Virus record (IMG/VR): IMGVR_UViG_2706794664_000015
Length of the DNA stretch: 34,883 nucleotides
Direction: 5' to 3' (one strand)
Source of the DNA: a virus
Taxonomy: Duplodnaviria > Heunggongvirae > Uroviricota > Caudoviricetes
Part shown: in pieces, positions 1 to 32,926 of the stretch
How positions within the stretch are numbered: position 1 is the first letter of the stretch
Layout of the letters: every line of letters begins with the position of its first letter
Program-made: the position numbers and the translations under genes
The notes under the pieces: model-generated
Told to the model about the DNA's origin: nothing
Seen by the model: only the letters and a program-made list of their open reading frames with translations
Databases searched by the model: none

Positions 1-1011
1 TTATAACGTCACTCCGCCTTTTAGTGGATTCAGAGCGACGGCATTTTGCAGATAGTCAGGCGCAAGGTGCGCATAGGCCATCGTCTGCTGAATGCTCGCA
101 TGTCCCAGAATCTGTTGCAGTGCGATTATATTGCCCCCATTCATCATGAAATGGCTTGCGAATGTATGCCGCAGGATGTGGGTTGCCTGATTGGGTGGTA
201 TATCAGGTTTCACTCTGCGTAAAATCCCGCAAAATTTCTCATAATCAACTTTGAATAATTTGGCGCTGGCCTCCTCTTTAACTTTTTTCTCCAGTTCCTC
301 AGAAATCGGCACGGTTCGCTTTTTACCGTTTTTGGTTTTCAGGAAGGTAACCCTGCAATTTGTAATCTGTGCTGGTTTTAGCGTGGCAACTTTCGTCCAT
401 CTTCCTCCAGTGCTCAGACATAAAAGCGCGACAAGTAAGTCATCACCAGCCAAAACATTTAACAGTTTTTCGATTTCTGCTTTTTCCAGGAACGTCATTT
501 CAGGGTTGGCCTCCGCCAGTGGCGGCAGTCCGTGAATTGGGTGTTGCCCGGAAAATTCATCCAATTGAATTAATTTTGTGAACATGCCGGATAATCTGTA
601 CATGTCACGGTTTATCGTTGCGGCACTGATACCATCACGTAGTCGCATGGAACGATAATCCATCAAAGCCCTTTTGCTCATCCTGCTCACTGGTATATCA
701 CCTATGCCGCTGATGGTTTTGAGTAGATGATTAAACTCTTTTGTTCCATGCTCGTGGTTTTGCCCGTGATATTTCCACCAGATGTCCAGCAACTCACTCA
801 AAGTCCGGCGGTCTGCTCGCTGGCCTCCCCATTCTTTCTGACTGGCATTGGCGATTGTGTATCGCTCAAATGCTAGTGCTTCAGCTTTTCTTTCGAATTT
901 CCTGCGGATGCGTTTTCCGTCGCGACCGCGAGGTCTAATGTCCACTTCATAGCGACCATCATCGAGCTTCTTAATTGCCATAAGAAAGCCCTCCGGCGCT
1001 GTATTCACCAT
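1..1011 (-). CDS. int: Tyrosine recombinase / phage integrase (P2 Int-like)
   Basis: 336-aa ORF ending at window position 1; C-terminal HxxR...Y catalytic region (LRHTFASH ... MAYAHL); first gene of a P2-type immunity region, followed by C and cox. Confidence 0.93.
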   Translation of the reverse strand: MVNTAPEGFLMAIKKLDDGRYEVDIRPRGRDGKRIRRKFERKAEALAFERYTIANASQKEWGGQRADRRTLSELLDIWWKYHGQNHEHGTKEFNHLLKTISGIGDIPVSRMSKRALMDYRSMRLRDGISAATINRDMYRLSGMFTKLIQLDEFSGQHPIHGLPPLAEANPEMTFLEKAEIEKLLNVLAGDDLLVALLCLSTGGRWTKVATLKPAQITNCRVTFLKTKNGKKRTVPISEELEKKVKEEASAKLFKVDYEKFCGILRRVKPDIPPNQATHILRHTFASHFMMNGGNIIALQQILGHASIQQTMAYAHLAPDYLQNAVALNPLKGGVTL

Positions 1012-1050
1012 CTTGGTAGCAAATGGTGAAAATGTAATCTTTATATAGAG

Positions 1051-1344
1051 TTAGCCAATCCTTTTCGCGGAGTGGTTGGACTCTGTTGACTCTGGCCCAA
1101 TGTGCGCGAGAGCCGGTGCGATTTGTCCTGCGTCCGGCGCGGTTTTATCTGTCATAAGCCATAGAGCATATTTTTGGAATGTGGGATGCATAGTGATTTT
1201 TAGCAAAGCTGTGCCACCGGGTTCAAAGTTTCCTCCTTCATATTTTTTAAGTGTGCTTAGCGGTAACTCTATGATTTCACAGAATTTTGATTGGCTTAGC
1301 CCTTCAGCCTCACGCAAGGCCTTAATCTTTTCGCTTAATTTCAT
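1051..1344 (-). CDS. C: Immunity repressor (P2 C-like)
   Basis: 97-aa ORF between int and divergent cox; C-terminal segment FQKYALWLMTDKTAPDAGQIAPALAHIG resembles P2 C repressor as I recall it; N-terminal HTH-like region. Confidence 0.82.
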   Translation of the reverse strand: MKLSEKIKALREAEGLSQSKFCEIIELPLSTLKKYEGGNFEPGGTALLKITMHPTFQKYALWLMTDKTAPDAGQIAPALAHIGPESTESNHSAKRIG

Positions 1345-1465
1345 TTGACATGGTGCCTATATAGGGACTAAATTCCCTCAAAACTGGAACCTATATAGGT
1401 TCCATTGATTTGAGAATAAACCAGCGTCTAAACGGTTTTGAGTGGTTTAGAAAGGGCTGGATCCT
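1345..1465. promoter_or_regulatory. Divergent early promoter/operator region (Pc/Pe) between C and cox
   Basis: 121-bp intergenic region between divergent C and cox; contains CCTATATAGG twice (1356-1365 and 1390-1399), the second inside a perfect 20-bp palindrome TGGAACCTATATAGGTTCCA (1385-1404). Confidence 0.5.
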
Positions 1466-1753
1466 ATGAGGGTACCATATATGGACGCTGAAAATTATGT
1501 GATTCAGTATCCGCTTGATGCGGTTCATGTGGATAAATTTGCTGATTTATTAGGGAAGCCAAAGACAGCCGTCAGTGAAATGGTGAAGGCAAATAAATTA
1601 CCAATTATTGAATTGCGTGATCCTTGCAAACCGAAGGCTCGTGCCGGTGAAAAATGGGTTTTCATTCCTGAGTTTAATCGCGCTGTACGTGAGGCGTTTT
1701 ATAACCGACCGGTTGAACAGCGTGATGCATGGCTTTTGTGGATGGGGTTGTGA
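1466..1753 (+). CDS. cox: Cox-like excisionase / transcriptional regulator
   Basis: 95-aa ORF divergent from C; similar to P2 Cox as recalled (GEKWVFIPEFN ... RDAWLLWMGL); expected position. Confidence 0.8.
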   Translation: MRVPYMDAENYVIQYPLDAVHVDKFADLLGKPKTAVSEMVKANKLPIIELRDPCKPKARAGEKWVFIPEFNRAVREAFYNRPVEQRDAWLLWMGL

Positions 1754-1755
1754 TT

Positions 1756-1926
1756 ATGAATGAGCCGCGTTGTATTGCTCAGTTATTGCGTAACGAAAGC
1801 CCTAGGGCGATTGACTTCACCATCACCCACGGGAAGGGTCGCAAGGGAATCATTATCCGCACCAAAAAACAGAGTCCGTTAAAAAAGGCTCTGACCTTTC
1901 TGAAAAGCCGGAGGGTCTGGAAATGA
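1756..1926 (+). CDS. Small hypothetical early-region protein
   Basis: ATG at 1756 immediately after cox stop; 56 aa, basic; sits where P2 has a small ORF between cox and B. Confidence 0.45.
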   Translation: MNEPRCIAQLLRNESPRAIDFTITHGKGRKGIIIRTKKQSPLKKALTFLKSRRVWK

Positions 1927-2423
1927 CAGTGATGACGCTCAATCTCGTCGAAAAACAGCCAGCAGCTATGCGCCGGATAATTGGTAAGCATCTTGCCGTC
2001 CCTCGTTGGCAGGATACATGTGATTATTATAATCAGATGATGGAGCGCGAACGGCTAACAGTTTGCTTTCATGCGCAGTTAAAACAACGTCACGCAACGA
2101 TGCGTTTTGAAGAAATGAACGACGTCGAACGTGAACGGCTGGTTTGTGCAATTGATGAATTGCGTGGGGCATTCTCAAAACGCCGTCAGGTTGGCGCAAG
2201 TGAGTATGCATATATTAGTTTTTTAACAGTCAGTCAGCGTCGTACTTTATTTATGCATGCCGGATTGACTGAAAAAGAATTCAATCAGCCATACTGGCGA
2301 ATTAATGAAGAGTCATGTTACTGGCGTGATGCTTTATTCCGTGCATTACGTGAACTATTCAGTCTGTTTGAGTATGCACCGACAATTCTGACGTCGGTAA
2401 AACCAGAGCAATATTTGCATTAA
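1923..2423 (+). CDS. B: Replication protein B (helicase-loader-like, P2 B)
   Basis: 166-aa ORF overlapping the upstream stop (ATGA); length and sequence match my recollection of P2 gpB; synteny cox-B-A. Confidence 0.85.
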   Translation: MTVMTLNLVEKQPAAMRRIIGKHLAVPRWQDTCDYYNQMMERERLTVCFHAQLKQRHATMRFEEMNDVERERLVCAIDELRGAFSKRRQVGASEYAYISFLTVSQRRTLFMHAGLTEKEFNQPYWRINEESCYWRDALFRALRELFSLFEYAPTILTSVKPEQYLH

Positions 2424-2486
2424 ATAATTAACCAGAGTTTTTAACGCACTTAATTGTGCGGGGCTTCTTTTTGCCTGGAGAAAGTC

Positions 2487-2681
2487 ATGCATACAGTTTC
2501 TGAAAATCAGTGCGGTAAATACGCATTACTGCTGCAACAGGCCAGAACCGAAGCACAGGCCGACGCTGCGACGCGCTTTTCTTCTCATCTTGACGCCATG
2601 ATTCGCCATATCACAAAGGCGGAGTTATCCCGCGTGGAGTGCTTTGATGTCCTGTTCTCATTCAGTTGTATTACTGAATAA
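2487..2681 (+). CDS. Small hypothetical protein (P2 orf80-like position)
   Basis: ATG at 2487 preceded by GGAG 6 nt upstream; 64 aa; between B and A as in P2. Confidence 0.5.
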
Positions 2682-2700
2682 CGCCTTAAAAATCGCCGTT

Positions 2701-2946
2701 ATGAAAAATGGCGACTTGTCTCTTATTCAACTTTGTCTTGATAAAGAAAAACGCGACATCACTGAATCTGTTATCGCGATTTATCAGAATGAATTAAACC
2801 TCCTGTCTGATGTGGTCAATTTACTTGTTAAACGCGCTGTATTCCACAAGCAAATTTCCTCAGTGGATGAACTGACAAAATTAACGACAGAACTTGCCAG
2901 TTATTGCGCTGATGTATCCAGGAAACTTAACGATAAAAGGAGCTGA
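2701..2946 (+). CDS. Small hypothetical protein (P2 orf81-like position)
   Basis: 81-aa ORF from ATG 2701 (alternative upstream starts at 2644/2647); early-region synteny. Confidence 0.5.
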   Translation: MKNGDLSLIQLCLDKEKRDITESVIAIYQNELNLLSDVVNLLVKRAVFHKQISSVDELTKLTTELASYCADVSRKLNDKRS

Positions 2947-2948
2947 TA

Positions 2949-3173
2949 ATGCCGGACAACATAGATTTTATTCAGGAACAACAGGCTGAATTACTGGAGC
3001 GCCAGATTAACGCGGCAAGGGTAAAACATTGCGGTGCTTCTGCGCTGGTTTGCGAAGAGTGTGACGCGCCAATTCCTGCTGCCCGTCGTGCGGCTTATCC
3101 GTCAGCCACGCGTTGTGTTTCCTGTCAGTCAGTCTTTGAAGCAAAAAACAAACATTACCGGAGAACGGCATGA
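2949..3173 (+). CDS. DksA/TraR-type C4 zinc-finger protein (P2 orf82-like)
   Basis: 74 aa with CEEC ... CVSC cysteine pairs; overlaps the downstream start (3170). Confidence 0.65.
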   Translation: MPDNIDFIQEQQAELLERQINAARVKHCGASALVCEECDAPIPAARRAAYPSATRCVSCQSVFEAKNKHYRRTA

Positions 3174-3445
3174 GTATTCGTATTGAAATTGGCGAACGTT
3201 ATGTCGTTACCAGTGACAGCTTCCAGTTTATTCTCCACGAGAAAAAGAGAGCGGAAAGCGGTAAAAACGCCGGTCAGGAATGGCTGGCGGTGGTTGGTTA
3301 TTACCCGAAATTAAGCCAGCTCGTTTCCGGCCTGATGCATCACGATATTCTGACCGGAAGCGCAAAGTCTTTTGCTGATTTAAACGCGCAGGTTGAGCAA
3401 CTCAGCAAGCGTTGTTCAGAGGCTTTTGGCTCATATGGCCGTTAA
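3170..3445 (+). CDS. Small hypothetical protein (P2 orf83-like position)
   Basis: 91-aa ORF, overlapping neighbours on both sides, directly upstream of A. Confidence 0.5.
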   Translation: MSIRIEIGERYVVTSDSFQFILHEKKRAESGKNAGQEWLAVVGYYPKLSQLVSGLMHHDILTGSAKSFADLNAQVEQLSKRCSEAFGSYGR

Positions 3446-5501
3446 AGCCTCCGGGCGTTTTGTCCCTCCGTCAGCATTTGCTGCAGGCACCGGTAAGGCG
3501 TTTACCGGTGCTTATGCATGGAACGCGCCACGCGAGGCTGTCGGGCGCGAAAGACCCCTTACACGTGACGAGATGCGTCAGGTGCAAGGTGTTTTATCCA
3601 CGATTAACCGCCTGCCTTACTTTTTGCGCTCGCTGTTTACGTCACGCTATGACTACATCCGGCGCAATAAAAGCCCGGTGCACGGGTTTTATTTCCTCAC
3701 ATCCACTTTTCAGCGTCGTTTATGGCCGCGCATTGAGCGTGTGAATCAGCGCCATGAAATGAACACCGACGCGTCGATGCTGTTTCTGGCTGAGCGTGAC
3801 CACTATGCGCGCCTGCCGGGAATGAATGACAAGGAGCTGAAAAAGTTTGCCGCCCGTATCTCATCGCAGCTTTTCATGATGTATGAGGAACTCAGCGATG
3901 CCTGGGTGGATGCGCATGGCGAAAAAGAATCGCTGTTTACGGATGAGGCGCAGGCTCACCTCTATGGTCATGTTGCTGGCGCTGCACGTGCTTTCAATAT
4001 TTCCCCTCTCTACTGGAAAAAATACCGTAAAGGACAGATGACCACGAGGCAGGCATATTCTGCCATTGCCCGTCTGTTTAACGATGAGTGGTGGATTAGT
4101 CAGCTTAAAGGCCAGCGTATGCGCTGGCATGAGGCGTTACTGATTGCTGTCGGGGAGGTCAATAAAGACCGTTCTCCTTATGCCAGTAAACATGCCATTC
4201 GTGATGTGCGTGCACGCCGCCAGGCAAATCTGGAATTTCTTAAATCGTGTGATCTCGAAAACAGGGAAACAGGCGAGCGCATCGACCTTATCAGTAAGGT
4301 GATGGGCAGTATTTCTAATCCTGAAATTCGCCGGATGGAGCTGATGAACACCATTGCCGGTATTGAGCGTTACGCCGCCGCAGAAGGTGATGTGGGGATG
4401 TTTATCACGCTGACCGCGCCGTCAAAGTATCACCCGACACGTCAGGTTGGAAAAGGCGAAAGTAAAACCGTCCAGCTAAATCACGGCTGGAACGATGAGG
4501 CATTTAATCCAAAGGATGCGCAGCGTTATCTCTGCCGTATCTGGAGCCTGATGCGCACGGCATTCAAGGATAATGATTTACAGGTCTACGGTTTGCGAGT
4601 CGTCGAGCCACACCACGACGGAACGCCGCACTGGCATATGATGCTTTTTTGTAATCCACGCCAGCGTAACCAGATTATCGAAATCATGCGTCGCTACGCG
4701 CTCAAAGAGGATGGCGACGAAAGAGGAGCTGCGCGAAACCGTTTTCAGGCAAAACATCTTAATCGGGGCGGTGCTGCGGGGTATATCGCGAAATACATCT
4801 CAAAAAATATCGACGGCTATGCACTGGATGGGCAGCTCGATAACGATAGCGGCAGACCGCTGAAAGATACTGCCGCGGCTGTTACCGCATGGGCGTCAAC
4901 GTGGCGCATTCCGCAATTTAAAACGGTTGGCCTGCCGACAATGGGGGCTTACCGTGAACTACGCAAATTGCCTCGCGGCGTCAGCATTGCTGATGAGTTT
5001 GACGAGCGCGTCGAGGCTGCACGCGCCGCCGCAGACAGTGGTGATTTTGCGCTGTATATCAGCGCGCAGGGTGGGGCAAATGTCCCGCGCGATTGTCAGA
5101 CTGTCAGGGTCGCCCGTAGTCCGTCGGATGAAGTTAACGAGTACGAGGAAGAAGTCGAGAGAGTGGTCGGCATTTACGCGCCGCATCTCGGCGCGCGTCA
5201 TATTCATATCACCAGAACGACGGACTGGCGCATTGTTCCGAAAGTGCCGGTCGTTGAGCCTTTGACTTTAAAAAGCGGCATCGCCGCGCCTCGGAGTCCT
5301 GTCAATAACTGTGGAAAGCTCACTGGTGGTGATACTTCGTTACCGGCTCCCACACCTTCTGAGCACGCCGCAGCAGTGCTTAATCTGGTAGATGACGGTG
5401 TTATCGAATGGAATGACCCGGAGGTTGTGAGGGCGCTCAGAGGTGCATTAAAACACGGACTGAGAAGACCAACCGTCAGCAAAGAAACGGAAGCCCGTTA
5501 A
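3435..5501 (+). CDS. A: Rolling-circle replication initiator A (P2 gpA-like), apparently truncated at the C-terminus by a frameshift
   Basis: ATG at 3435 (MAVKASGRF...) matches P2 gpA N-terminus as recalled; 688 aa here versus about 761 aa for gpA; homology appears to continue in another frame in ORF 5549..5731. Confidence 0.85.
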   Translation: MAVKASGRFVPPSAFAAGTGKAFTGAYAWNAPREAVGRERPLTRDEMRQVQGVLSTINRLPYFLRSLFTSRYDYIRRNKSPVHGFYFLTSTFQRRLWPRIERVNQRHEMNTDASMLFLAERDHYARLPGMNDKELKKFAARISSQLFMMYEELSDAWVDAHGEKESLFTDEAQAHLYGHVAGAARAFNISPLYWKKYRKGQMTTRQAYSAIARLFNDEWWISQLKGQRMRWHEALLIAVGEVNKDRSPYASKHAIRDVRARRQANLEFLKSCDLENRETGERIDLISKVMGSISNPEIRRMELMNTIAGIERYAAAEGDVGMFITLTAPSKYHPTRQVGKGESKTVQLNHGWNDEAFNPKDAQRYLCRIWSLMRTAFKDNDLQVYGLRVVEPHHDGTPHWHMMLFCNPRQRNQIIEIMRRYALKEDGDERGAARNRFQAKHLNRGGAAGYIAKYISKNIDGYALDGQLDNDSGRPLKDTAAAVTAWASTWRIPQFKTVGLPTMGAYRELRKLPRGVSIADEFDERVEAARAAADSGDFALYISAQGGANVPRDCQTVRVARSPSDEVNEYEEEVERVVGIYAPHLGARHIHITRTTDWRIVPKVPVVEPLTLKSGIAAPRSPVNNCGKLTGGDTSLPAPTPSEHAAAVLNLVDDGVIEWNDPEVVRALRGALKHGLRRPTVSKETEAR

Positions 5502-5548
5502 AACCGCATGAAATAGCGCCATCGGCCAGACTGACCCGGTCGGAACGA

Positions 5549-5731
5549 ATGCAAATTACCCGTATCCGCGTTGACCTTGCTCAGAACGGTATCAGGCCGC
5601 AGCGATGGGAGCTTGAGGTGCTGGCGCGTGGGGCAACCGTAAATTATGACGGGAAAAAATTCACTTACCCGCTCGCTGATGAGTGGTCGGGATTCTCAAC
5701 AGTATTAGAGTCAAACTCAGTGAAGCGTTAA
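5549..5731 (+). pseudogene. A: Out-of-frame 3' remnant of gene A
   Basis: 60-aa ORF in a different frame directly downstream of A; its reading frame continues upstream without stop to about 5453, overlapping the A frame; combined span 3435..5731 gives about 764 codons, the canonical gpA length. Confidence 0.6.
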
Positions 5732-5817
5732 CTCAATAAATATGAGTTTATAAGTTAGGCCTCGAGATTTTGTAGAAAGGGATGTATACTGAGTATCGTA
5801 TAGATTTGGAGTGAGTG

Positions 5818-6840
5818 ATGACTGTAAAGGTGATAGACCTTTTTTGTGGTGCTGGCGGATTAACTCATGGTTTGCAGCTTGCGGGGCTTGATGTCGTTGC
5901 AGGCATTGACCTTGAGGGGGAATGTAGGTTTCCCTATGAAAGAAACAATAAATCTAAGTTTATTGAGCAAGATATCGCTAAAGTAACAAAAGAGGAACTG
6001 CTGAGGCTTTATGGTGATGCGTCTGTAAAAGTATTGGCAGGATGCGCACCTTGCCAACCTTTTTCAAAATATACTCAAGGAAAAGATAAGGCTGATGATA
6101 AAAAATGGCCTCTTCTTTATGAGTTCGAACGTTTAATTCGCGAAGTATCTCCAGAAATCGTAACAATGGAGAACGTTCCTGATGTAACTAAACATAAAGT
6201 TTATAATGATTTTTATAATTCATTGTTAAAGTTGGGCTATTATGTTTGGGCGTCTAAGATTGATTGTGTCGAATATGGAATCCCACAAAACCGTTCCCGT
6301 CATGTATTGTTGGCCTCAAAATTGGGGGCGATTGAGTTAGTAAAACGTGACGATGTTATTTTGAAAACAGTTAGAGATGCAATAGGAAATCTTCCTCCAT
6401 TAGAAGATGGCCAAACAGATCCAAATGATATATTACATAGAGCCAGTAAATTAAATCCGATTAATAAAAAAAGAATTATACACTCTGTTCCTGGTGGTAC
6501 ATGGAAGGACTGGCCGAAAGAGTTGGTTGCCGCTTGTCATATGAAATCCAGCGGTAAAGGGTATGCTAGTGTATATGGGCGCATGTCTTGGGATAAGCCA
6601 AGTCCAACAATTACAACTCTTTGTTATGGTTTCGGGAATGGGCGTTTTGGACATCCAGAACAGCATAGAGCGATTTCTCTTAGAGAGGCTGCTTTATTGC
6701 AAACTTTCCCGATGGATTATATTTTTGTAGAAGACAAAAACAAGTTTGTTATAAGAAGTATTGGGAAAATGATAGGTAATGCTGTTCCTGTGGAACTAGG
6801 AAAAGCAATTGGGCAATCAATCAAGAACCATTTAGAATGA
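5818..6840 (+). CDS. DNA (cytosine-5)-methyltransferase
   Basis: Motif I FCGAGG, motif IV PCQPFS, motif VI ENV, motif VIII QNRSRHV; ATG at 5818 with GGAG 6 nt upstream; AT-rich relative to the phage backbone; lies in the tin/old slot. Confidence 0.9.
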   Translation: MTVKVIDLFCGAGGLTHGLQLAGLDVVAGIDLEGECRFPYERNNKSKFIEQDIAKVTKEELLRLYGDASVKVLAGCAPCQPFSKYTQGKDKADDKKWPLLYEFERLIREVSPEIVTMENVPDVTKHKVYNDFYNSLLKLGYYVWASKIDCVEYGIPQNRSRHVLLASKLGAIELVKRDDVILKTVRDAIGNLPPLEDGQTDPNDILHRASKLNPINKKRIIHSVPGGTWKDWPKELVAACHMKSSGKGYASVYGRMSWDKPSPTITTLCYGFGNGRFGHPEQHRAISLREAALLQTFPMDYIFVEDKNKFVIRSIGKMIGNAVPVELGKAIGQSIKNHLE

Positions 6841-6846
6841 TAAAAT

Positions 6847-6863
6847 GGCCTGCTTTACAGGCC
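6847..6863. terminator. Bidirectional stem-loop between convergent genes
   Basis: GGCCTG (6847-6852) / CAGGCC (6858-6863) stem with 5-nt loop, flanked by A/T runs, in the 29-bp gap between the MTase stop and the HEPN-like gene stop. Confidence 0.5.
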
Positions 6864-6869
6864 TTATAA

Positions 6870-7550
6870 CTATTGTTCTAAATATTCATTATTATTTATA
6901 TAGTGCTCTATATTATTCACGATAGCATCAAGATAGGCGATTACTTCTAATGAAATATTCTCTAAGTCCTGATATGAAACATTTTTTCCAATCTCAGCAA
7001 ATGATACATTGCCATGAGATAAATCATTACGATGTTGTTTAACAGTGGCTAATTTTTCACCATGTTTAGTGTGAGTGTAATCGGAATGTGTAGAAAAACC
7101 ATATATTTTCGATTTTTCTTTGATTTCCTCTCTATCAATATTTCCTGAGAATATTTTCTTTTTGTTGAACGTGCCATAAGATATACCGCAAGATATACCT
7201 TTGGTAAGGTGATTAACTAAACTTTCAACATTTACAGATTCATTTTTTAATCTTTTTAATATTTCTGACCTGAGATTTTTCCTGAGTTTGTCAAATTCTA
7301 CGTTTCTATCATAAATAGTCTCATGAATAAGGCAGATAGCTTCTCTCATTGTTGATTCAATGAGGTTATATAACAGTATATATACTGCTCCCTTTAGAGT
7401 TTTTCGTGATTGAGCAGTAATGGAGAACTTATGTTCTTTATCATCAGCTGATATCAGTTCTGCACCGGCATACTCAATAAATTTCAAAAGATCCAAATAG
7501 GCCAAGATCTCTCCTGACCTTTCGTCAAAATCCTCACGAAAACGATCCAT
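6870..7550 (-). CDS. HEPN-like protein (Rx4H motif), second gene of a two-gene cargo operon
   Basis: 226-aa ORF; ATG (7548-7550) lies 1 nt from the upstream gene's stop (7552-7554); C-terminal KQHRNDLSHG fits the HEPN Rx4-6H motif; AT-rich. Confidence 0.65.
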   Translation of the reverse strand: MDRFREDFDERSGEILAYLDLLKFIEYAGAELISADDKEHKFSITAQSRKTLKGAVYILLYNLIESTMREAICLIHETIYDRNVEFDKLRKNLRSEILKRLKNESVNVESLVNHLTKGISCGISYGTFNKKKIFSGNIDREEIKEKSKIYGFSTHSDYTHTKHGEKLATVKQHRNDLSHGNVSFAEIGKNVSYQDLENISLEVIAYLDAIVNNIEHYINNNEYLEQ

Positions 7551-7551
7551 G

Positions 7552-8694
7552 TTAATCCTCTAATAATTTATCCCGAACATATTCAATTCGTTCAATTACC
7601 TTCACGCGACTATTAGCTCCGTCGGAAGTGGTCAATCGTTTGAATTCTTCTGAGCTTAGCCAATCTAAGTTCTTGGGAACAAGGTCAGGGACTTCACGTA
7701 ATGCAAGTGCTGCGCCAACAGCGAGAGATTCGAATCTAACTCGAGGTGTAGATTTTGCAGTAATAGTTTTCTTGAATCCTGCTGGGAAATAGTTTTCAAC
7801 AAAAGATAGAACATTAGCAAACTCTTGTTTCATTGAGTTTTGTTTAGTTTCGTCTATATCTCGATTTTCTGACATATAGTCATTTAGAAAATCCCGTACG
7901 GAATGATCAAAGTTCTTGTACTTATCTACGTAGGCAAAGAATCTTAATGTAAATTCTAACCGTTCATCTCGTTTTTCTTTAGTCTGAGATAAAGGTGCTA
8001 ATTCTTTAAATTTAGGTATTGTTGAGCATGGCTTAATAACCTGTGTATATAAATTTGTTGAACCAAGTTCTGATCCTTTACGGACTTCCATATCTTTCAA
8101 TATATCGCTGCCAGAGTTAATACGCTCAAAAAGATCTCTACGGGTTTCTTCATTGCATTTAGAACTCAATTCTATAACGCGGACAGGAATTCTCATGAAA
8201 CGACGTTGACGTGATAATGGTAAATCTTGGAATTTGAAACCATTAAGGACGTCTAAAGATTTCAGGTCTTGTAAAACTAATTCATTTTGGATAAAAGCGT
8301 GTATAGTCCTAACTCGTTGTGAGCCATCAACAATCTCAATTCGCCCATCTAAATCGGGATCTTCGGAGAGAACATCTGCTATAAATATATATGGTATAGG
8401 AAAACCCAAAATCAAAGACTCTATCAATTTTGATTGTCTTTTTTCACTCCAAACAAAATCCCTTTGATAATCAGGAACAAAGAGTTCGTTAGTATCATCC
8501 TCTAATCCGTTATGATACTTATTAACTAATAACTCAACGGTAAATTCTTTGGTCTCAAAATCCACATCCTTTTGCTCAGCACGAATTTGCTCTTCAGCGT
8601 TTTGCTTTATCACCTCTAGCTGAGCAAGCAACTCTGCTCTTTTCTTGGCATTATCTTCATTTTCTAGTTGAGATTTTAAATCAATAATGTCCAT
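7552..8694 (-). CDS. DUF262 / ParB-like (GmrS-type N-terminal domain) protein, first gene of the cargo operon
   Basis: 380 aa from ATG 8692-8694 (AAGGGA RBS upstream; ORF track extends to a TTG at 8712); PDYQRDFVW and DGSQR motifs characteristic of DUF262; AT-rich. Confidence 0.8.
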   Translation of the reverse strand: MDIIDLKSQLENEDNAKKRAELLAQLEVIKQNAEEQIRAEQKDVDFETKEFTVELLVNKYHNGLEDDTNELFVPDYQRDFVWSEKRQSKLIESLILGFPIPYIFIADVLSEDPDLDGRIEIVDGSQRVRTIHAFIQNELVLQDLKSLDVLNGFKFQDLPLSRQRRFMRIPVRVIELSSKCNEETRRDLFERINSGSDILKDMEVRKGSELGSTNLYTQVIKPCSTIPKFKELAPLSQTKEKRDERLEFTLRFFAYVDKYKNFDHSVRDFLNDYMSENRDIDETKQNSMKQEFANVLSFVENYFPAGFKKTITAKSTPRVRFESLAVGAALALREVPDLVPKNLDWLSSEEFKRLTTSDGANSRVKVIERIEYVRDKLLED

Positions 8695-8879
8695 GTCTAG
8701 TTCCCTTAACAAGTGTTAAAAATTGAAGCGGATAGCATACCGCATAGATCATGAAAAATGCCATCATGTGCATGGATTTGCATGCGTCAGAAGTCGCTTT
8801 TATTGTTAGTTATCACTAGCGCTGGCGTGCTCTTGGAGTGTTCATGCAACTGCATTAAAACCGCCCCATGAAGCGGGCG

Positions 8880-20480: not shown

Positions 20481-20925
20481 GTTTAAGCGTTTTGAAGACA
20501 GGCTGACCGGACTTATTGAGTCGCTGTCACCGTCAGGGCGTCGGCGACTGAGCGCCGAACTGGCGAAACGTCTGCGTCAGAGTCAGCAGCGTCGGGTGAT
20601 GGCACAGAAAGCCCCGGACGGCACACCCTACGCACCACGCCAGCAGCAGAGCGCCAGAAAAAAGACCGGTCGCGTTAAGCGAAAAATGTTTGCGAAACTT
20701 ATCANNNNNNNNNNNNNNNNNNNNNNNNNNNNNNNNNNNNNNNNNNNNNNNNNNNNNNNNNNNNNNNNNNNNNNNNNNNNNNNNNNNNNNNNNNNNNNNN
20801 NNNNNNNNNNNNNNNNNNNNNNNNNNNNNNNNNNNNNNNNNNNNNNNNNNNNNNNNNNNNNNNNNNNNNNNNNNNNNNNNNNNNNNNNNNNNNNNNNNNN
20901 NNNNNNNNNNNNNNNNNNNNNNNNN
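20473..20925 (+). CDS. S: Tail completion protein (P2 gpS-like)
   Basis: ATG 20473 overlapping the R stop; N-terminal 77 aa visible, remainder in N-mask 20705-20968; end estimated from a 150-aa gpS. Confidence 0.65.
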
Positions 20926-20996
20926 NNNNNNNNNNNNNNNNNNNNNNNNNNNNNNNNNNNNNNNNNNNGGTATGACCCGGCGGCATCCTTCCCGTT

Positions 20997-21632
20997 ATGA
21001 ACACTCTCGCAAATATTCAGGAACTCGCGCGCGCACTGCGCAACATGATCCGCACCGGCATTATCGTCGAAACCGACCTTAATGCCGGTCGCTGCCGTGT
21101 GCAGACCGGCGGCATGTGCACCGACTGGCTTCAGTGGCTGACCCATCGCGCCGGACGTTCGCGCACATGGTGGGCACCTTCCGTGGGGGAACAGGTGCTG
21201 ATTCTGGCCGTAGGCGGTGAACTCGACACGGCGTTCGTTCTGCCGGGGATTTATTCCGGTGATAACCCCGCGCCGTCTGCGTCGGCGGATGCCCTGCATA
21301 TCCGTTTCCCTGACGGGGCGGTGATTGAGTATGAACCTGAAACCAGTGCACTCACGGTAAGCGGAATTAAAACGGCCAGCGTGACGGCTTCTGATTCTGT
21401 TACTGCCACGGTGCCGGTGGTCACGGTGAAAGCATCAACCCGCGTCACTCTGGACACGCCGGAGGTGGTCTNNNNNNNNNNNNNNNNNNNNNNNNNNNNN
21501 NNNNNNNNNNNNNNNNNNNNNNNNNNNNNNNNNNNNNNNNNNNNNNNNNNNNNNNNNNNNNNNNNNNNNNNNNNNNNNNNNNNNNNNNNNNNNNNNNNNN
21601 NNNNNNNNNNNNNNNNNNNNNNNNNNNNNNNN
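20997..21632 (+). CDS. V: Baseplate assembly protein (P2 gpV-like)
   Basis: ATG 20997; 158 aa visible before N-mask 21472-21736; end estimated from a 211-aa gpV. Confidence 0.7.
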
Positions 21633-21647
21633 NNNNNNNNNNNNNNN

Positions 21648-21995
21648 NNNNNNNNNNNNNNNNNNNNNNNNNNNNNNNNNNNNNNNNNNNNNNNNNNNNN
21701 NNNNNNNNNNNNNNNNNNNNNNNNNNNNNNNNNNNNGCGCACGCCGGTCGGCTCACGGGTGATGCGTCGTGATTACGGCTCGTTGCTGGCGTCAATGATT
21801 GACCAGCCGCAGACCCCGGCGCTTGAGTTGCAGATTAAGGTCGCCTGTTACATGGCCGTGCTGAAATGGGAAGCCCGCGTCACCCTGTCATCCGTCACCA
21901 CGGCGCGCAGCTTTGACGGGCGAATGACGGTCACGTTAACCGGCCAGCACAACGACACCGGCCAGCCACTTTCGTTAACCATCCCTGTGAGTTGA
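21648..21995 (+). CDS. W: Baseplate wedge protein (P2 gpW-like)
   Basis: C-terminal 86 aa visible after the mask, ending at 21995; start is masked and estimated from a 115-aa gpW. Confidence 0.65.
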   Translation, partial: XXXXXXXXXXXXXXXXXXXXXXXXXXXXXXRTPVGSRVMRRDYGSLLASMIDQPQTPALELQIKVACYMAVLKWEARVTLSSVTTARSFDGRMTVTLTGQHNDTGQPLSLTIPVS

Positions 21996-22908: not shown

Positions 22909-23440
22909 TTCGCGACTGCTGCCGACCGGCTCATCACCGCTTGAAGTTGCCGCCGCAAAAGCCTGTGCGGAAATTGAAAAAACGCCGGTCAGGATTCGTG
23001 AACTGTGGAACCCGGATACCTGTCCGGCAAATCTGCTGCCGTGGCTGGCGTGGGCGTTTTCGGTCGACAGGTGGGATGAAAAGTGGCCGGAAGCGACAAA
23101 ACGCGCCGTTATCCGCGATGNNNNNNNNNNNNNNNNNNNNNNNNNNNNNNNNNNNNNNNNNNNNNNNNNNNNNNNNNNNNNNNNNNNNNNNNNNNNNNNN
23201 NNNNNNNNNNNNNNNNNNNNNNNNNNNNNNNNNNNNNNNNNNNNNNNNNNNNNNNNNNNNNNNNNNNNNNNNNNNNNNNNNNNNNNNNNNNNNNNNNNNN
23301 NNNNNNNNNNNNNNNNNNNNNNNNNNNNNNNNNNNNNNNNNNNNNNNNNNNNNNNNNNNNNNNNNNNNNNNNNTCCCGGCTACCTGTTCGCCGGTGGTGT
23401 GGCTTACGACGGCGATGTAATTACGGTTTACCCCGGATAA
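22901..23440 (+). CDS. I: Baseplate protein (P2 gpI-like)
   Basis: ATG 22901 overlapping the J end; interrupted by N-mask 23121-23373; ends at 23440 just before H. Confidence 0.7.
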   Translation: MSDSRLLPTGSSPLEVAAAKACAEIEKTPVRIRELWNPDTCPANLLPWLAWAFSVDRWDEKWPEATKRAVIRDXXXXXXXXXXXXXXXXXXXXXXXXXXXXXXXXXXXXXXXXXXXXXXXXXXXXXXXXXXXXXXXXXXXXXXXXXXXXXXXXXXXXXPGYLFAGGVAYDGDVITVYPG

Positions 23441-23450
23441 GTGAGGAATA

Positions 23451-25769
23451 ATGAGCACAAAATTCAGAACCGTTATCACCACTGCCGGTGCAGCAAAGCT
23501 GGCAGCGGCAACCGCACCGGGAGGGCGGAAGGTCAACATTACCACGATGGCCGTCGGGGATGGCGGTGGTAAATTGCCTGTCCCGGATGCCGGACAGACC
23601 GGGCTTATCCACGAAGTCTGGCGACATACGCTGAACAAAATCAGCCAGGACAAACGAAACAGTAATTATATTATCGCAGAGCTGGTTATTCCGCCGGAGG
23701 TGGGCGGTTTCTGGATGCGTGAGCTTGGCCTGTACGATGATGCGGGAACGTTAATTGCCGTGGCGAACATGGCCGAAAGTTATAAGCCAGCTCTTGCCGA
23801 AGGCTCAGGGCGTTCGCAGACCTGTCGCATGGTCATCATCGTCAGCAGTGTGGCCTCGGTGGAGCTGACCATTGACACCACAACGGTGATGGCGACACAG
23901 GATTACGTTGATGACAAAATTGCAGAGCACGAACAGTCACGACGTCACCCGGACGCCTCGCTGACCGCAAAAGGTTTTACTCAGTTAAGCAGTGCGACCA
24001 ACAGCACGTCTGAAACACTGGCCGCAACGCCGAAAGCGGTAAAGGCCGCCTATGACCTTGCTAACGGGAAATATACCGCACAGGACGCTACCACAGCTCG
24101 AAAAGGTCTTGTCCAGCTCAGTAGTGCCACCAACAGCACGTCTGAAACGCTTGCGGCAACGCCAAAGGCGGTTAAGACAGCGTATGACCTTGCTAACGGG
24201 AAATACACTGCACAGGACGCCACTACAGCGCGAAAAGGTCTTGTCCAGCTCAGTAGCGCCACCAACAGCGATTCTGAAACGCTTGCGGCAACACCAAAGG
24301 CGGTTAAGACAGCGTATGACCTTGCTAACGGGAAATACACTGCACAGGATGCCACCACAGCGCGAAAAGGTCTTGTCCAGCTAAGTAGTGCCATCAACAG
24401 CGATTCTGAAACGCTGGCCGCAACGCCAAAAGCAGTGAAGTCTGCCTATGACAATGCTGAAAAACGTCTTCAGAAAGATCAGAACGGTGCGGATATTCCG
24501 GGAAAGGATACCTTCACGAAAAATATCGGTGCCTGTCGTGCTTATAGCGGCGCTTTGAGCACTGAAGCCGGAAACTGGACAACCGCTCAGTTTATTGAAT
24601 GGCTGGATTCCCGTGGTGCATTTAATCATCCGTACTGGATGTGCAAAGGCTCCTGGTCATATGCAAATAACAAAATCATTACGGATACCGGATGTGGTGA
24701 TATCCACCTGGCTGGTTGTGTCGTCGAGGTCATGGGAACTAAATCTGCAATCACTATCCGAGTGACCACGCCAACAACATCAAGCGGTGGCGGTACAACC
24801 AGCGCGCAATTCACTTACATAAATCATGGGGACGGCTACTCCCCCGGCTGGCGTCGTGACTGGAATCGTCAGGGCGACTCAATGACCGGAACGATTAATC
24901 AGGATGGCGGAAGCCAGAATGCCTATATGTCTACGGCCTTATGTTCAGGCACCAGAGGCGGCAAAAAATATCTCAGAAAGTTTCGTGGTGGAGAAGGAGA
25001 TACTATCTGGCATGAAACAGTTCAGGGCGGGGTAATTCGCTGGGCGACAGGAAACAATGACGCTCAGGAAGAATTATCACTCAGCTCCGCTTATGGTCTC
25101 CGTTCAAGAGGTGAAATTACATCACTCAGTGCTAATGGTCTGCGCATTGCTTATGGCAATTATGGATTCTTTATCAGGAATGATGGCGGCAGCACATATT
25201 TAATGCTGACGGCCTCTGGCGATAAATTTGGGACATGGAACGGCTTAAGACCGCTGACTATCAATAACGCCAATGGCGGAGTGTCAATGGGGCATGGCCT
25301 GAGTGTTACAGGTGATATTGTCTCAAGTACCAAAGTACGTGCCGGTAGCGGGAAAAAGTTCACGGTCAGCAGCAGCAATACATCCACGAAGGAAGCCGCA
25401 TTCAATTTGTGGGGAAACTCAAGTCGTCCTGTGGTGGCTGAATTAGGTGATGATGCAGGCTGGCATTTTTACAGTCAGAGAAATACAGATAACAGCATCA
25501 CTTTTGCTGTTAACGGGCAGGTATCACCATCTAACTATGGCAACTTTGATTCACGCTATGTCCGGGATATCCGGCTTGGTGGTGCTGCCACATACAAACC
25601 TGCGAACAATGGTATGACATGGACACATCAGGCACCGTCCGGGTGTGTATATTCCGGCATTATTGTTCAGGATACCGGCTCAAACTCTGCCGATAACATT
25701 GGTGGCGTATATTACAGACCGGTGCAGAAATACATTAACGGGACTTGGTATAACGTGGCACAGGTATAA
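23451..25769 (+). CDS. H: Tail fiber protein (P2 gpH-like) with internal tandem repeats
   Basis: 772-aa ORF; conserved N-terminal tail-fiber region; 44-aa repeats in the middle; C-terminal region is the presumed receptor-binding part. Confidence 0.88.
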   Translation: MSTKFRTVITTAGAAKLAAATAPGGRKVNITTMAVGDGGGKLPVPDAGQTGLIHEVWRHTLNKISQDKRNSNYIIAELVIPPEVGGFWMRELGLYDDAGTLIAVANMAESYKPALAEGSGRSQTCRMVIIVSSVASVELTIDTTTVMATQDYVDDKIAEHEQSRRHPDASLTAKGFTQLSSATNSTSETLAATPKAVKAAYDLANGKYTAQDATTARKGLVQLSSATNSTSETLAATPKAVKTAYDLANGKYTAQDATTARKGLVQLSSATNSDSETLAATPKAVKTAYDLANGKYTAQDATTARKGLVQLSSAINSDSETLAATPKAVKSAYDNAEKRLQKDQNGADIPGKDTFTKNIGACRAYSGALSTEAGNWTTAQFIEWLDSRGAFNHPYWMCKGSWSYANNKIITDTGCGDIHLAGCVVEVMGTKSAITIRVTTPTTSSGGGTTSAQFTYINHGDGYSPGWRRDWNRQGDSMTGTINQDGGSQNAYMSTALCSGTRGGKKYLRKFRGGEGDTIWHETVQGGVIRWATGNNDAQEELSLSSAYGLRSRGEITSLSANGLRIAYGNYGFFIRNDGGSTYLMLTASGDKFGTWNGLRPLTINNANGGVSMGHGLSVTGDIVSSTKVRAGSGKKFTVSSSNTSTKEAAFNLWGNSSRPVVAELGDDAGWHFYSQRNTDNSITFAVNGQVSPSNYGNFDSRYVRDIRLGGAATYKPANNGMTWTHQAPSGCVYSGIIVQDTGSNSADNIGGVYYRPVQKYINGTWYNVAQV
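23970..24460 (+). repeat. Tandem 132-bp repeats (about 3.7 copies) inside tail fiber gene H
   Basis: Unit starts at 23970, 24102, 24234 and 24366 (period 132 bp, 44 aa: ...LSSATNSTSETLAATPKAVKAAYDLANGKYTAQDATTARKGLVQ...); near-identical copies with a few substitutions. Confidence 0.9.
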
Positions 25770-26414: not shown

Positions 26415-27833
26415 CTACATCGGGCTCTTATATGGGGAATGAGAGTTTTTGAAACGCGGTTCTTCATGCTTCGGACTGTAAATTCTTGCATGATTATCTA
26501 TCACAACTTTACTTCCAAGAATATCTCGAGCTTCTCCTAACGACCACACAGTAGAAAGATCATTAGTCAAATTTCGATAGAGAGCACGAAACCCCTTGGG
26601 TTTTTTAAGATCATATAAGAAATCAGGAACTTTAACTTTAAAATTAAAGGTCGGTAGTTTCGGAAGGGAATTAATAGCCGCAACAGTATTGTATACATGT
26701 ACAAGCTTAGTTACAGGTACACCTTGTCTAGTCTTGAGCCCATACTTAGTTCGAATATAATCTGATTCTTTCGATACTTCAGTAAGCAATGCTCTTACTG
26801 ACTTATTAGCTTGAGGCAATTCATTTTCATCAAACAAGCGCTTTATTTCTCGCATTTTCTCACGGGCCCTTACAAATTCGTTGTTGTCCCTTATGTTATA
26901 AGCAGCTTCAACAATACAACTTGGATCACCAGTTTCTTTTGCGAGCCATGCCGAAAATAAAGGAAGCGAAGTTGCTGTTGCTACAGCTTTACCACCAGAA
27001 TGAATATCAATGAGATCATGACTTAACGAAGTGGAAAAGTTTTCTACAATATGTTTAGCATAGTTAAAACCATACTGACAGTTTTGGCTTAAATATGTCT
27101 GTTGATACGCCTGACGTAATGGATATAAAAAAGTATCTGCTTGAAGGTACTTAGCTGTGAGAGAATAAAATACTGCCCGATTAGCCAGCCATACAAGCGA
27201 AGCCACGAATGCTTTGATTGCATCTGATGCTTCACCAGCAGATGTGCCATCCCCCCATTTTGCTCCGGGAACTTTGTACCCCTTGCGAATAGGGTTGCCA
27301 AATCGATCGAGAAGTTCAACATCGCCATTTGTTCTATTACCAGACTCAGCAGCATCACGCAGTTCTGAAAAAATGGCAGCAGCAATGTTACCATATTTTT
27401 CAAACTCCTTACCTCCATCAGATAAGTTCTTCAGTGTTAGATGATAAACACTTGAACTAATGTCCCATGTACATATGATATGTGTCTGAAGAAGTTCAAT
27501 TAGTTTTTTAAAATCGTCATTAACAAATGTTCCACCACGAATTTTAGGTTTCAATGCATCAGATATTTTTTTTGCTTCACTTTCAATTTCATCCAACCCA
27601 TATTGTGCTTTATCAAGAAATAATATCTCTCTGAAACTTGAAATCCTACTCCCACGGTACTCTGGAATATAATCATCAACCGCGATAACGTGATCATAGA
27701 ACAAAATAGACTGTATATAGTTCTCAAATGCTATTATGTCTGTATCTACTGAGTCCTTCGATCTTGTTTTTACTTTCCCCTCGATTCTTTGGACTGCAGT
27801 TAGAGTTGAATTATCAATCAGTGCGTATGTCAT
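26415..27833 (-). CDS. Uncharacterised 472-aa cargo protein in the Z/fun slot (candidate defense gene)
   Basis: ATG 27831-27833 with AAGGAA RBS; AT-rich; antisense to the late operon between G and FI; no catalytic or NTP-binding motif recognised by eye. Confidence 0.8.
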   Translation of the reverse strand: MTYALIDNSTLTAVQRIEGKVKTRSKDSVDTDIIAFENYIQSILFYDHVIAVDDYIPEYRGSRISSFREILFLDKAQYGLDEIESEAKKISDALKPKIRGGTFVNDDFKKLIELLQTHIICTWDISSSVYHLTLKNLSDGGKEFEKYGNIAAAIFSELRDAAESGNRTNGDVELLDRFGNPIRKGYKVPGAKWGDGTSAGEASDAIKAFVASLVWLANRAVFYSLTAKYLQADTFLYPLRQAYQQTYLSQNCQYGFNYAKHIVENFSTSLSHDLIDIHSGGKAVATATSLPLFSAWLAKETGDPSCIVEAAYNIRDNNEFVRAREKMREIKRLFDENELPQANKSVRALLTEVSKESDYIRTKYGLKTRQGVPVTKLVHVYNTVAAINSLPKLPTFNFKVKVPDFLYDLKKPKGFRALYRNLTNDLSTVWSLGEARDILGSKVVIDNHARIYSPKHEEPRFKNSHSPYKSPM

Positions 27834-30449: not shown

Positions 30450-32926
30450 CAATGTAAAATTACAGGTATTGCTCAGGGCTGTTGACCAGGCGTCCCGCCC
30501 GTTTAAATCCATCCGCAGAGCGAGTAAGTTGCTGTCGGGGGATATCCGGGAAACACAAAAATCACTGCGCGAGCTGAACGGTCACGCATCCCGTATTGAG
30601 GGATTCCGCAAGACCAGTGCACAGCTCGCCGTGACTGGTCATGCACTTGAAAAGGCACGGCAGGAGGCCGAAGCCCTTGCCACACAGTTTAAAAACACCG
30701 AACGCCCGACCCGTGCTCAGGCGAAAGTGCTGGAATCCGCAAAGCGTGCGGCGGAGGACTTACAGGCGAAATATAACCGCCTGACAGATTCCGTTAAACG
30801 CCAGCAGCGGGAACTGGCCGCTGTGGGAATTAATACCCGCAATCTTGCACATGATGAGCAGGGACTGAAAAACCGTATCAGTGAAACCACCGCCCAGCTT
30901 AACCGGCAGCGTGACGCGCTGGCGCGTGTCAGTGCGCAACAGGCAAAACTTAACGCAGTCAAACAGCGTTATCAGGCCGGAAAGGAACTGGCCGGAAATA
31001 TGGCCTCAGTGGGCGCTGCCGGTGTGGGGATTGCTGCTGCGGGAACGATAGCCGGAGTTAAGCTGCTGATGCCAGGTTATGAGTTTGCGCAGAAAAACTC
31101 AGAATTGCAGGCTGTGCTCGGTGTGGCAAAAGACTCCGCCGAAATGGCTGCACTCCGCAAGCAGGCGCGCCAGCTCGGTGACAACACCGCCGCCTCAGCG
31201 GATGATGCGGCCGGTGCACAGATTATCATTGCGAAAGCGGGTGGGGATGTTGATGCCATTCAGGCGGCAACGCCGGTCACGCTGAATATGGCGCTGGCGA
31301 ACCGCCGCACAATGGAAGAAAACGCCGCCCTGCTGATGGGGATGAAATCCGCCTTTCAGCTTTCAAACGATAAGGTCGCTCATATCGGGGATGTTCTCTC
31401 CATGACGATGAACAAAACCGCCGCTGATTTTGACGGCNNNNNNNNNNNNNNNNNNNNNNNNNNNNNNNNNNNNNNNNNNNNNNNNNNNNNNNNNNNNNNN
31501 NNNNNNNNNNNNNNNNNNNNNNNNNNNNNNNNNNNNNNNNNNNNNNNNNNNNNNNNNNNNNNNNNNNNNNNNNNNNNNNNNNNNNNNNNNNNNNNNNNNN
31601 NNNNNNNNNNNNNNNNNNNNNNNNNNNNNNNNNNNNNNNNNNNNNNNNNNNNNNNNNNNNNNNNNNNNNNNNNNNNNNNNNNNNNNNNNNNNNNNNNNNN
31701 NNNNNNNNNNAGAAATGCAGGCCAGCTTTGAGAAAAACCGGCTCGGTACTGCCCAGCAGGCCGAATACATGAAAACCATTTTCGGGGAGGAGGCCAGCTC
31801 AGCCGCCGCTGTGCTGATGACTGCCGCGTCAACCGGAAAGCTGGACAAACTGACCGCTGCGTTTAAAGCCTCAGACGGGAAGACCGCAGAGCTGGTAAAT
31901 ATCATGCAGGACAACCTCGGCGGTGACTTTAAGGAGTTTCAGTCCGCTTATGAGGCGGTGGGGACAGACCTGTTTGACCAGCAGGAAGGCGCGCTACGTA
32001 AGCTCACGCAGACGGCCACAAAGTATGTGTTAAAACTCGACGGCTGGGTACAGAAAAACAAATCACTGGCGTCAACCATTGGCCTCATTGCCGGTGGCGC
32101 GCTGGCGCTGACTGGCATCATCGGTGCAATTGGTCTTGTAGCCTGGCCGGTTATCACCGGCATCAATGCCATCATCGCGGCAGCAGGCGCAATGGGGGCA
32201 ATCTTCACGACGGTTGGTAGTGCCGTTATGACGGCCATCGGGGCGATTAGCTGGCCGGTTGTGGCTGTGGTGGCCGCCATTGTCGCCGGGGCGTTGCTTA
32301 TCCGTAAATNNNNNNNNNNNNNNNNNNNNNNNNNNNNNNNNNNNNNNNNNNNNNNNNNNNNNNNNNNNNNNNNNNNNNNNNNNNNNNNNNNNNNNNNNNN
32401 NNNNNNNNNNNNNNNNNNNNNNNNNNNNNNNNNNNNNNNNNNNNNNNNNNNNNNNNNNNNNNNNNNNNNNNNNNNNNNNNNNNNNNNNNNNNNNNNNNNN
32501 NNNNNNNNNNNNNNNNNNNNNNNNNNNNNNNNNNNNNNNNNNNNNNNNNNNNNNNNNNNNNNNNNNNNNNTTAATGCGTTCAACAAATTGCGCAGCGGCA
32601 TTGACTGGGTACTGGAAAAGCTCGGGGTCATCAACAAAGAGTCAGACACACTTGACCAGACCGCCGCCAGAACTCATGCCGCCACGTATGGCACCGGTGA
32701 TTATATTCCGGCGACCAGCTCTTATGCAGGCTATCAGGCTTATCAGCCGGTCACGGCACCGGCTGGCCGCTCTTATGTGGACCAGAGTAAAAACGAATAT
32801 CACATCAGCCTGACGGGTGGTACTGCACCGGGGACACAGCTTGACCGCCAGTTACAGGATGCGCTCGAAAAATACGAGCGGGATAAACGTGCGCGCGCCC
32901 GTGCCAGCATGATGCATGACGGTTAA
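30442..32926 (+). CDS. T: Tail tape measure protein (P2 gpT-like)
   Basis: About 827 codons; coiled-coil-rich N-terminus, Gly/Ala-rich hydrophobic segment; interrupted by N-masks 31438-31710 and 32310-32570, with reading frame differing between unmasked segments. Confidence 0.85.

Follow-up and report, generated by a model that had tools for sequence, protein, structure and literature searches.

A one-base deletion that appears to split replication initiator gene A in a P2-type prophage of Shigella sonnei

The window analyzed here, the whole 34,883-nucleotide stretch of DNA held as IMG/VR record IMGVR_UViG_2706794664_000015, carries a P2-type prophage in which gene A appears to have been split by one lost base. 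Two A residues are present at positions 5471–5472, where intact alleles have three, and we estimate a probability of roughly 0.88 that this deletion is genuine and heritable, an instance of ordinary pseudogenization in a decaying prophage. In the course of events that we propose, the change from AAA to AA would have arisen in the S. sonnei lineage, within gene A of a P2-type prophage located beside cpxP. Ribosomes passing codon 679 would translate nine wrong codons before reaching the stop at 5499–5501, giving a 688-aa product that would retain the HUH/two-tyrosine nuclease core and be 86 residues short at its C-terminus. The rest of the gene, at 5471–5731, would stay in the −1 frame and go untranslated.

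The reading frame of gene A and the site of the lesion

Based on ORF listing and translation, gene A extends from an ATG at 3435, equivalent to the P2 start, to a TAA at 5499–5501 on the plus strand and comprises 688 codons, in agreement with the initial annotation, which had also reported a second ORF on the same strand in a different frame at 5549..5731. We found the latter to encode 60 aa in the −1 frame. Three-frame translation showed that the −1 frame is open from 5417 onward, with the preceding stop at 5414–5416, rather than from about 5453 as had been proposed; the overlap between the two frames is 85 nt (5417–5501). This frame encodes ...TNRQQRNGSPLKPHEIAPSARLTRSERMQITRIRVDLAQNGIRPQRWELE..., a sequence that the initial annotation had assigned to the C-terminal region of P2 gpA, and both tblastn and alignments confirmed the assignment. 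In the tblastn search, residues 1–679 of P2 gpA matched positions 3435–5471 with 97.9% identity, and residues 671–759 matched positions 5444–5710 in the other frame, where the displaced tail is 85% identical to P2.

At the DNA level, the identity of the region to gene A is 96–98% for P2 and many P2-type phages. When aligned with P2, phage 12474III and two Escherichia coli prophages, the window showed one gap, a single base long; it reads CCAACC at 5469–5474 where every intact relative reads CCAAACC. With the nearest allele, from E. coli PSS-08-2, the alignment pairs GAGAAGACC-AACCG of the window with GAGAAGACCAAACCG. The missing base is one A of the AAA run (window 5471–5472), and the gap is the sole indel between this gene A and those of P2 and the closest alleles. 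The alignments thereby localized a lesion that the initial annotation had suspected to be a single-base deletion near 5469–5473.

Putting one A back produces an ORF of 765 codons; the earlier figure was about 764. At every residue (100% identity) the repaired 765-aa protein matches a natural replication endonuclease present on 786 contigs (UniRef A0A376FTK0_ECOLX, 'MULTISPECIES' Enterobacteriaceae). Such an exact match is not one to be expected by chance, and it settles the nature of the lesion.

The disrupted gene can be described as two pieces, both on the plus strand: (i) a 5′ fragment at 3435..5501 (688 codons plus TAA), of which residues 1–679 are authentic gpA and residues 680–688, TVSKETEAR, are out-of-frame read-through, the first aberrant residue being 680, and (ii) a displaced 3′ part at 5471..5731, corresponding to codons 680–765 of the intact gene and now in the −1 frame. 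The 60-aa ORF is the last portion of this displaced tail and begins at an internal Met codon.

What the truncated protein keeps and loses, and the state of the prophage

The 688-aa product is matched by the Phage_GPA family (PF05840) at aa 133–462 with a score of 412 bits (cut-off, 31.4). It keeps the HWH motif at 399–401 and the YIAKY motif with Y450 and Y454; in line with the P2 literature, we take these to be the metal-binding H-x-H and the two active-site tyrosines, respectively. The origin is likewise preserved. The nick site given at P2 position 29892 in the P2 record was mapped by alignment to window position 5293 on the plus strand, a point within gene A that lies 178 nt 5′ of the deletion, and the surrounding sequence is conserved, so the ori DNA is untouched. 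What is missing is an uninterrupted ORF of ~755–770 codons with a conserved P2-type tail, since the frame stops after 688 codons, and the window gene A is a disrupted copy and not an intact member of Phage_GPA.

The lost residues are the last 86 (680–765), in place of which stand the nine aberrant residues TVSKETEAR. A motif of the tail, APSARLTR.ER..I..IR.DL....I..QRWELE.LARGA, is kept in the A protein of a Yersinia phage that is 57% identical, and dN/dS of the tail ranged from 0.09 to 0.42 among intact alleles, values indicating that the tail is under purifying selection in intact P2-type phages. A proteins that are 31–38% identical (other Peduoviridae, such as SopEPhi, SEN1 and Klebsiella phages) align only to approximately residue 626–693, and the C-termini of more distant gpA proteins are unrelated to the lost tail. 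Because the nuclease core is kept and these distant proteins align only that far, residual nicking may have survived the truncation. Compared with its closest intact counterpart, the displaced tail shows just one further non-synonymous change, which fits a recent event.

A single-sequence AlphaFold2 model of the lost tail was weak (pLDDT 63.8), with two helices and a β-hairpin; a Foldseek search of this weak model against the PDB returned no fold match, the best E value being 2, and a search of solved structures with the intact gpA sequence returned no relatives. Literature searches yielded nothing specific on the role of the gpA C-terminus or on a described P2-type prophage of S. sonnei.

In P2-type phages gpA is the essential origin-nicking initiator, and the tail lost here is under purifying selection where the gene is intact. 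The most likely consequence of the deletion is therefore loss or severe impairment of prophage replication. The initial annotation had used the word inactivating; as the catalytic domain is kept, this is a property that we infer for the mutation.

An IS21-family insertion in the portal gene Q is an independent sign that the prophage is defective. The element occupies 9240..11875 on the minus strand, with istA at 10111..11778 and istB at 9339..10337, and its products match the expected profiles (IstB_IS21, 202 bits; IstA with rve and Mu-transpos_C_2). P2 positions 354–360 align on both sides of the element, and repeated terminal motifs, ATGCCAAA..GATCGA, were identified. With Q interrupted as well as gene A, the prophage is best regarded as a decaying, non-inducible remnant that still carries accessory genes, and selection on it has presumably been relaxed.

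These accessory genes lie downstream of gene A and include: (i) a C5 cytosine methylase at 5815–6840 on the plus strand, (ii) a HEPN_MAE_28990 protein at 6870–7550 on the minus strand, and (iii) a GmrSD_N/DUF262 protein at 7552–8712 on the minus strand, which is matched by the PADLOC models NsnA and PD-T4-2_A. They are cargo of the gpA–gpQ variable region, a known anti-phage hotspot (PMC9122126). E. coli CFSAN064036 has the same cassette, corresponding to 5815–8712, behind an A gene that is intact.

The position of this cargo bears on a different explanation, in which the mutation is real and was tolerated or even favored, either because the truncated gpA still nicks ori or because the loss of replication locks in a cargo-bearing prophage. 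We regard it as unlikely. It gains from the intact nuclease core, from the absence of a similar tail in distant gpA proteins and from the location of the cargo in the gpA–gpQ hotspot (PMC9122126), and the tail DNA differs from the nearest intact allele by just one extra non-synonymous change. However, the tail is under purifying selection in intact phages, Q was independently destroyed by an IS element so that neutral decay is enough, and a recent mutation would account equally well for the one additional change. The more specific version, in which a selected 'locking' mutation or a nicking-competent truncated gpA keeps a non-replicating P2 remnant as a carrier of the methylase and DUF262/HEPN genes, is slightly less likely again. 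If it were true, the 86-residue tail would be a separable module required for productive replication and not for nicking.

Source and recurrence of the deletion

The source of the window is S. sonnei GCA_001255555.1, contig CWSV01000010.1; window positions 1–15501 are 100% identical to it over the unmasked overlap. This is a draft assembly, the contig being 62 kb in length, and the prophage is integrated beside cpxP/cpxRA. The depositors gave both pieces of gene A the name 'replication protein A' (CSE30979.1 and CSE30983.1). In the host flank (L006, 1884–2552), the gene call for kdgT gives a product of 211 aa, overlapped by an antisense ORF; against a usual length of ~327 aa, this hints at a further pseudogene in the Shigella chromosome around the prophage.

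The exact 688-aa product and the same deletion were also found on a Logan contig, L007 (SRR11142356), which has been seen in 13 samples. The two sequences can be told apart by a second deletion, of 64 nt, with its junction at 2639..2640 on the plus strand of the window. This deletion removed the 3′ end of orf80 (DUF2732), is of the slippage type, being flanked by the near-identical 9-mers CGCGTGGAG and CGCGGGGAG, and is absent from both L007 and P2. Hence L007 does not represent the same assembly as the window, and the occurrence of the gene A deletion in an independent assembly that differs by a 64-nt indel makes a random sequencing error very unlikely. The Logan contig stops 29 nt inside the same Q/IS junction, showing that the IS insertion is common to both assemblies. 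The 13 samples may stem from one clone or outbreak; they would then exclude random error and leave room for a reproducible artefact, which at a run of two to three bases is improbable.

To place the deletion allele in a wider context, it was counted in E. coli complete genomes, metagenome contigs and species-representative genomes, a survey whose scope lay outside Shigella chromosomes. None of 1035 matching records among the E. coli complete genomes (a collection that excludes Shigella) carried it, and the best of these records, at 71/72, had the intact allele with identical flanks. Five metagenome contigs shared the same flanks, and the deletion allele occurred in 0 of the 5, all being intact. 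In an exact-pattern scan of the species-representative genomes, neither allele was matched.

The quality of the assembly was assessed over the unmasked P2-homologous genes, ~20 kb of which were alignable, and neither tblastn nor alignment revealed further frameshifts; the assembly is thus not indel-ridden. The ORF list and the tblastn gaps in P, Q, N, T and other genes had given that impression, and they were traced to ten N-masked blocks and one IS insertion. The N runs, 250–290 nt each and 2630 N in total, are located at 12230–12495, 12603–12892, 16068–16325, 16520–16769, 17607–17856, 20705–20968, 21472–21736, 23121–23373, 31438–31710 and 32310–32570. The genes partly covered by them are Q, P, N, M, L, S, V/W, I and T, and the lengths of the runs do not exactly match those of P2. 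They also create spurious long ORFs, such as one of 805 aa at 12182..14599, and hide whether the masked segments are intact. Masking, and not mutation, accounts for what had looked like additional disruptions of P, Q, N, L, S, V, W, I and T.

These observations leave little room for a sequencing or assembly error, in which the genome would truly read AAA and contain an intact 765-codon gene A, and which we consider improbable. The intact allele is far better represented, on 786 contigs versus 2 for the exact truncated protein in a cluster look-up (3 by contig look-up), and the source is only a draft assembly. Against this, the deletion and the 688-aa product recur in the Logan assembly, the run concerned comprises only two to three bases and is not a long homopolymer, and the ~20 kb of alignable P2 genes are free of other frameshifts. 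The initial annotation had left the choice between a real mutation and a sequencing error open, and the independent Logan contig strongly favors the former.

Recoding of the split gene is highly improbable. A programmed or leaky −1 ribosomal frameshift, or transcriptional slippage, within 5417–5501 would restore full-length gpA, and the 85-nt overlap of the two frames offers a place for it; at a lone lysine codon (A AAA, position 5451) re-pairing in the −1 frame is conceivable in principle, and the P2 record documents a −1 frameshift elsewhere in that phage, in E/E′. However, the overlap does not contain an X XXY YYZ heptamer, and its longest homopolymer, A4, is too short for transcriptional slippage. 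The predicted fold of 5440–5560 has an energy of −25.1 kcal/mol (z = −0.70 versus shuffles), which is not a significant downstream structure. Moreover, gene A is single-frame in all intact relatives, and the two-frame layout is not conserved, as evidenced by the counts of 0/1035 in E. coli and 0/5 in the metagenome contigs. Lacking the slippery heptamer, the stimulatory structure and a conserved layout, programmed frameshifting was rejected, and any slippage that occurs would be at background level.

A further reading takes the layout as natural: the A protein would be a short one, and 5549..5731 would be a small gene in its own right, expressed from signals of its own. It has a negligible chance of being correct. 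The 60-aa ORF has an ATG start and was called in the source assembly as CSE30983.1, but homologues read through the region with an internal Leu in P2 at its 'start' codon. The database cluster to which the 60-aa protein belongs is made up of gpA pieces labelled 'partial' that come from the ends of contigs, no Pfam family matches, and the Logan gene call omits the ORF. The sole promoter-like site, at 5762–5790, is not upstream of the ORF and serves the methylase gene. The 60-aa ORF is left over from gene A by accident, and the refutation that the initial annotation had named fails on both counts: intact homologues do not stop at this position, and no conserved gene of its own lies at 5549..5731.

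Implications and comparison with known systems

For annotation purposes, positions 3435–5731 should be treated as one disrupted gene A and not as two genes, and with the frameshift and the IS element in Q taken together, the P2-type prophage of S. sonnei should be scored as defective. The deletion-bearing 41-mer, GGACTGAGAAGACCAACCGTCAGCAAAGAAACGGAAGCCCG, could serve as a lineage marker. The natural truncation could also be used to probe the conserved C-terminal 86 residues of gpA.

Other regions of the window differ from P2 in ways that are separate from the fate of gene A. The integrase, the repressor C and cox, within positions 1–1753, are 43–52% identical to those of P2, whereas the replication and late genes of the prophage are 96–100% identical; the low identity of the former group points to a different immunity and integration module. 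The tail-fiber gene H (23451–25769) has 772 codons versus 669 in P2 and diverges in its C-terminal part. Internally, a segment of ~130–210 nt is repeated with overlaps, and the P2 segment 13252–13461 matches four times at 23969–24452. Where P2 has fun(Z), between G and FI, the window has a 472-aa ORF (26415–27833, minus strand) that neither Pfam nor PADLOC models matched; this may be an uncharacterized accessory or defense gene in the second P2 variable locus.

The gpA protein of P2 is a cis-acting rolling-circle initiator that nicks ori within its own gene. The P2 protein (NP_046795.1, 761 aa) is 97.9% identical to the window product over residues 1–679 and 85% identical over the displaced tail. 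The gene order B, orf80–83, A is the same in both, and the ori nick-site sequence, HWH, Y450 and Y454 are common to both. The difference lies in the frame, which is unbroken in P2 and which in the window is broken after codon 679 by the 1-bp deletion. The last codons also differ, those of the window encoding …FSTVLESNSVKR and those of P2 …FSTVMEWT, because the variable hotspot begins there. A closer counterpart is the 765-aa A0A376FTK0_ECOLX, to which every residue corresponds once one A is restored, whereas the window as it stands yields 688 aa and an orphan 60-aa ORF. E. coli CFSAN064036 carries a related 765-aa allele (WP_000382628.1) with the same C-terminal ending and the same methylase/HEPN/DUF262 cargo.

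Gene A is a well-characterized gene, and its disruption here by a trivial 1-bp deletion is ordinary prophage decay that suggests no new mechanism. Prophage genes disrupted by frameshifts or IS elements are established features of Shigella genomes. The point frameshift in gene A, the IS insertion in another essential gene and the small slippage-type deletion in orf80 are all alike to this general pattern of decay, from which nothing sets the present prophage apart.
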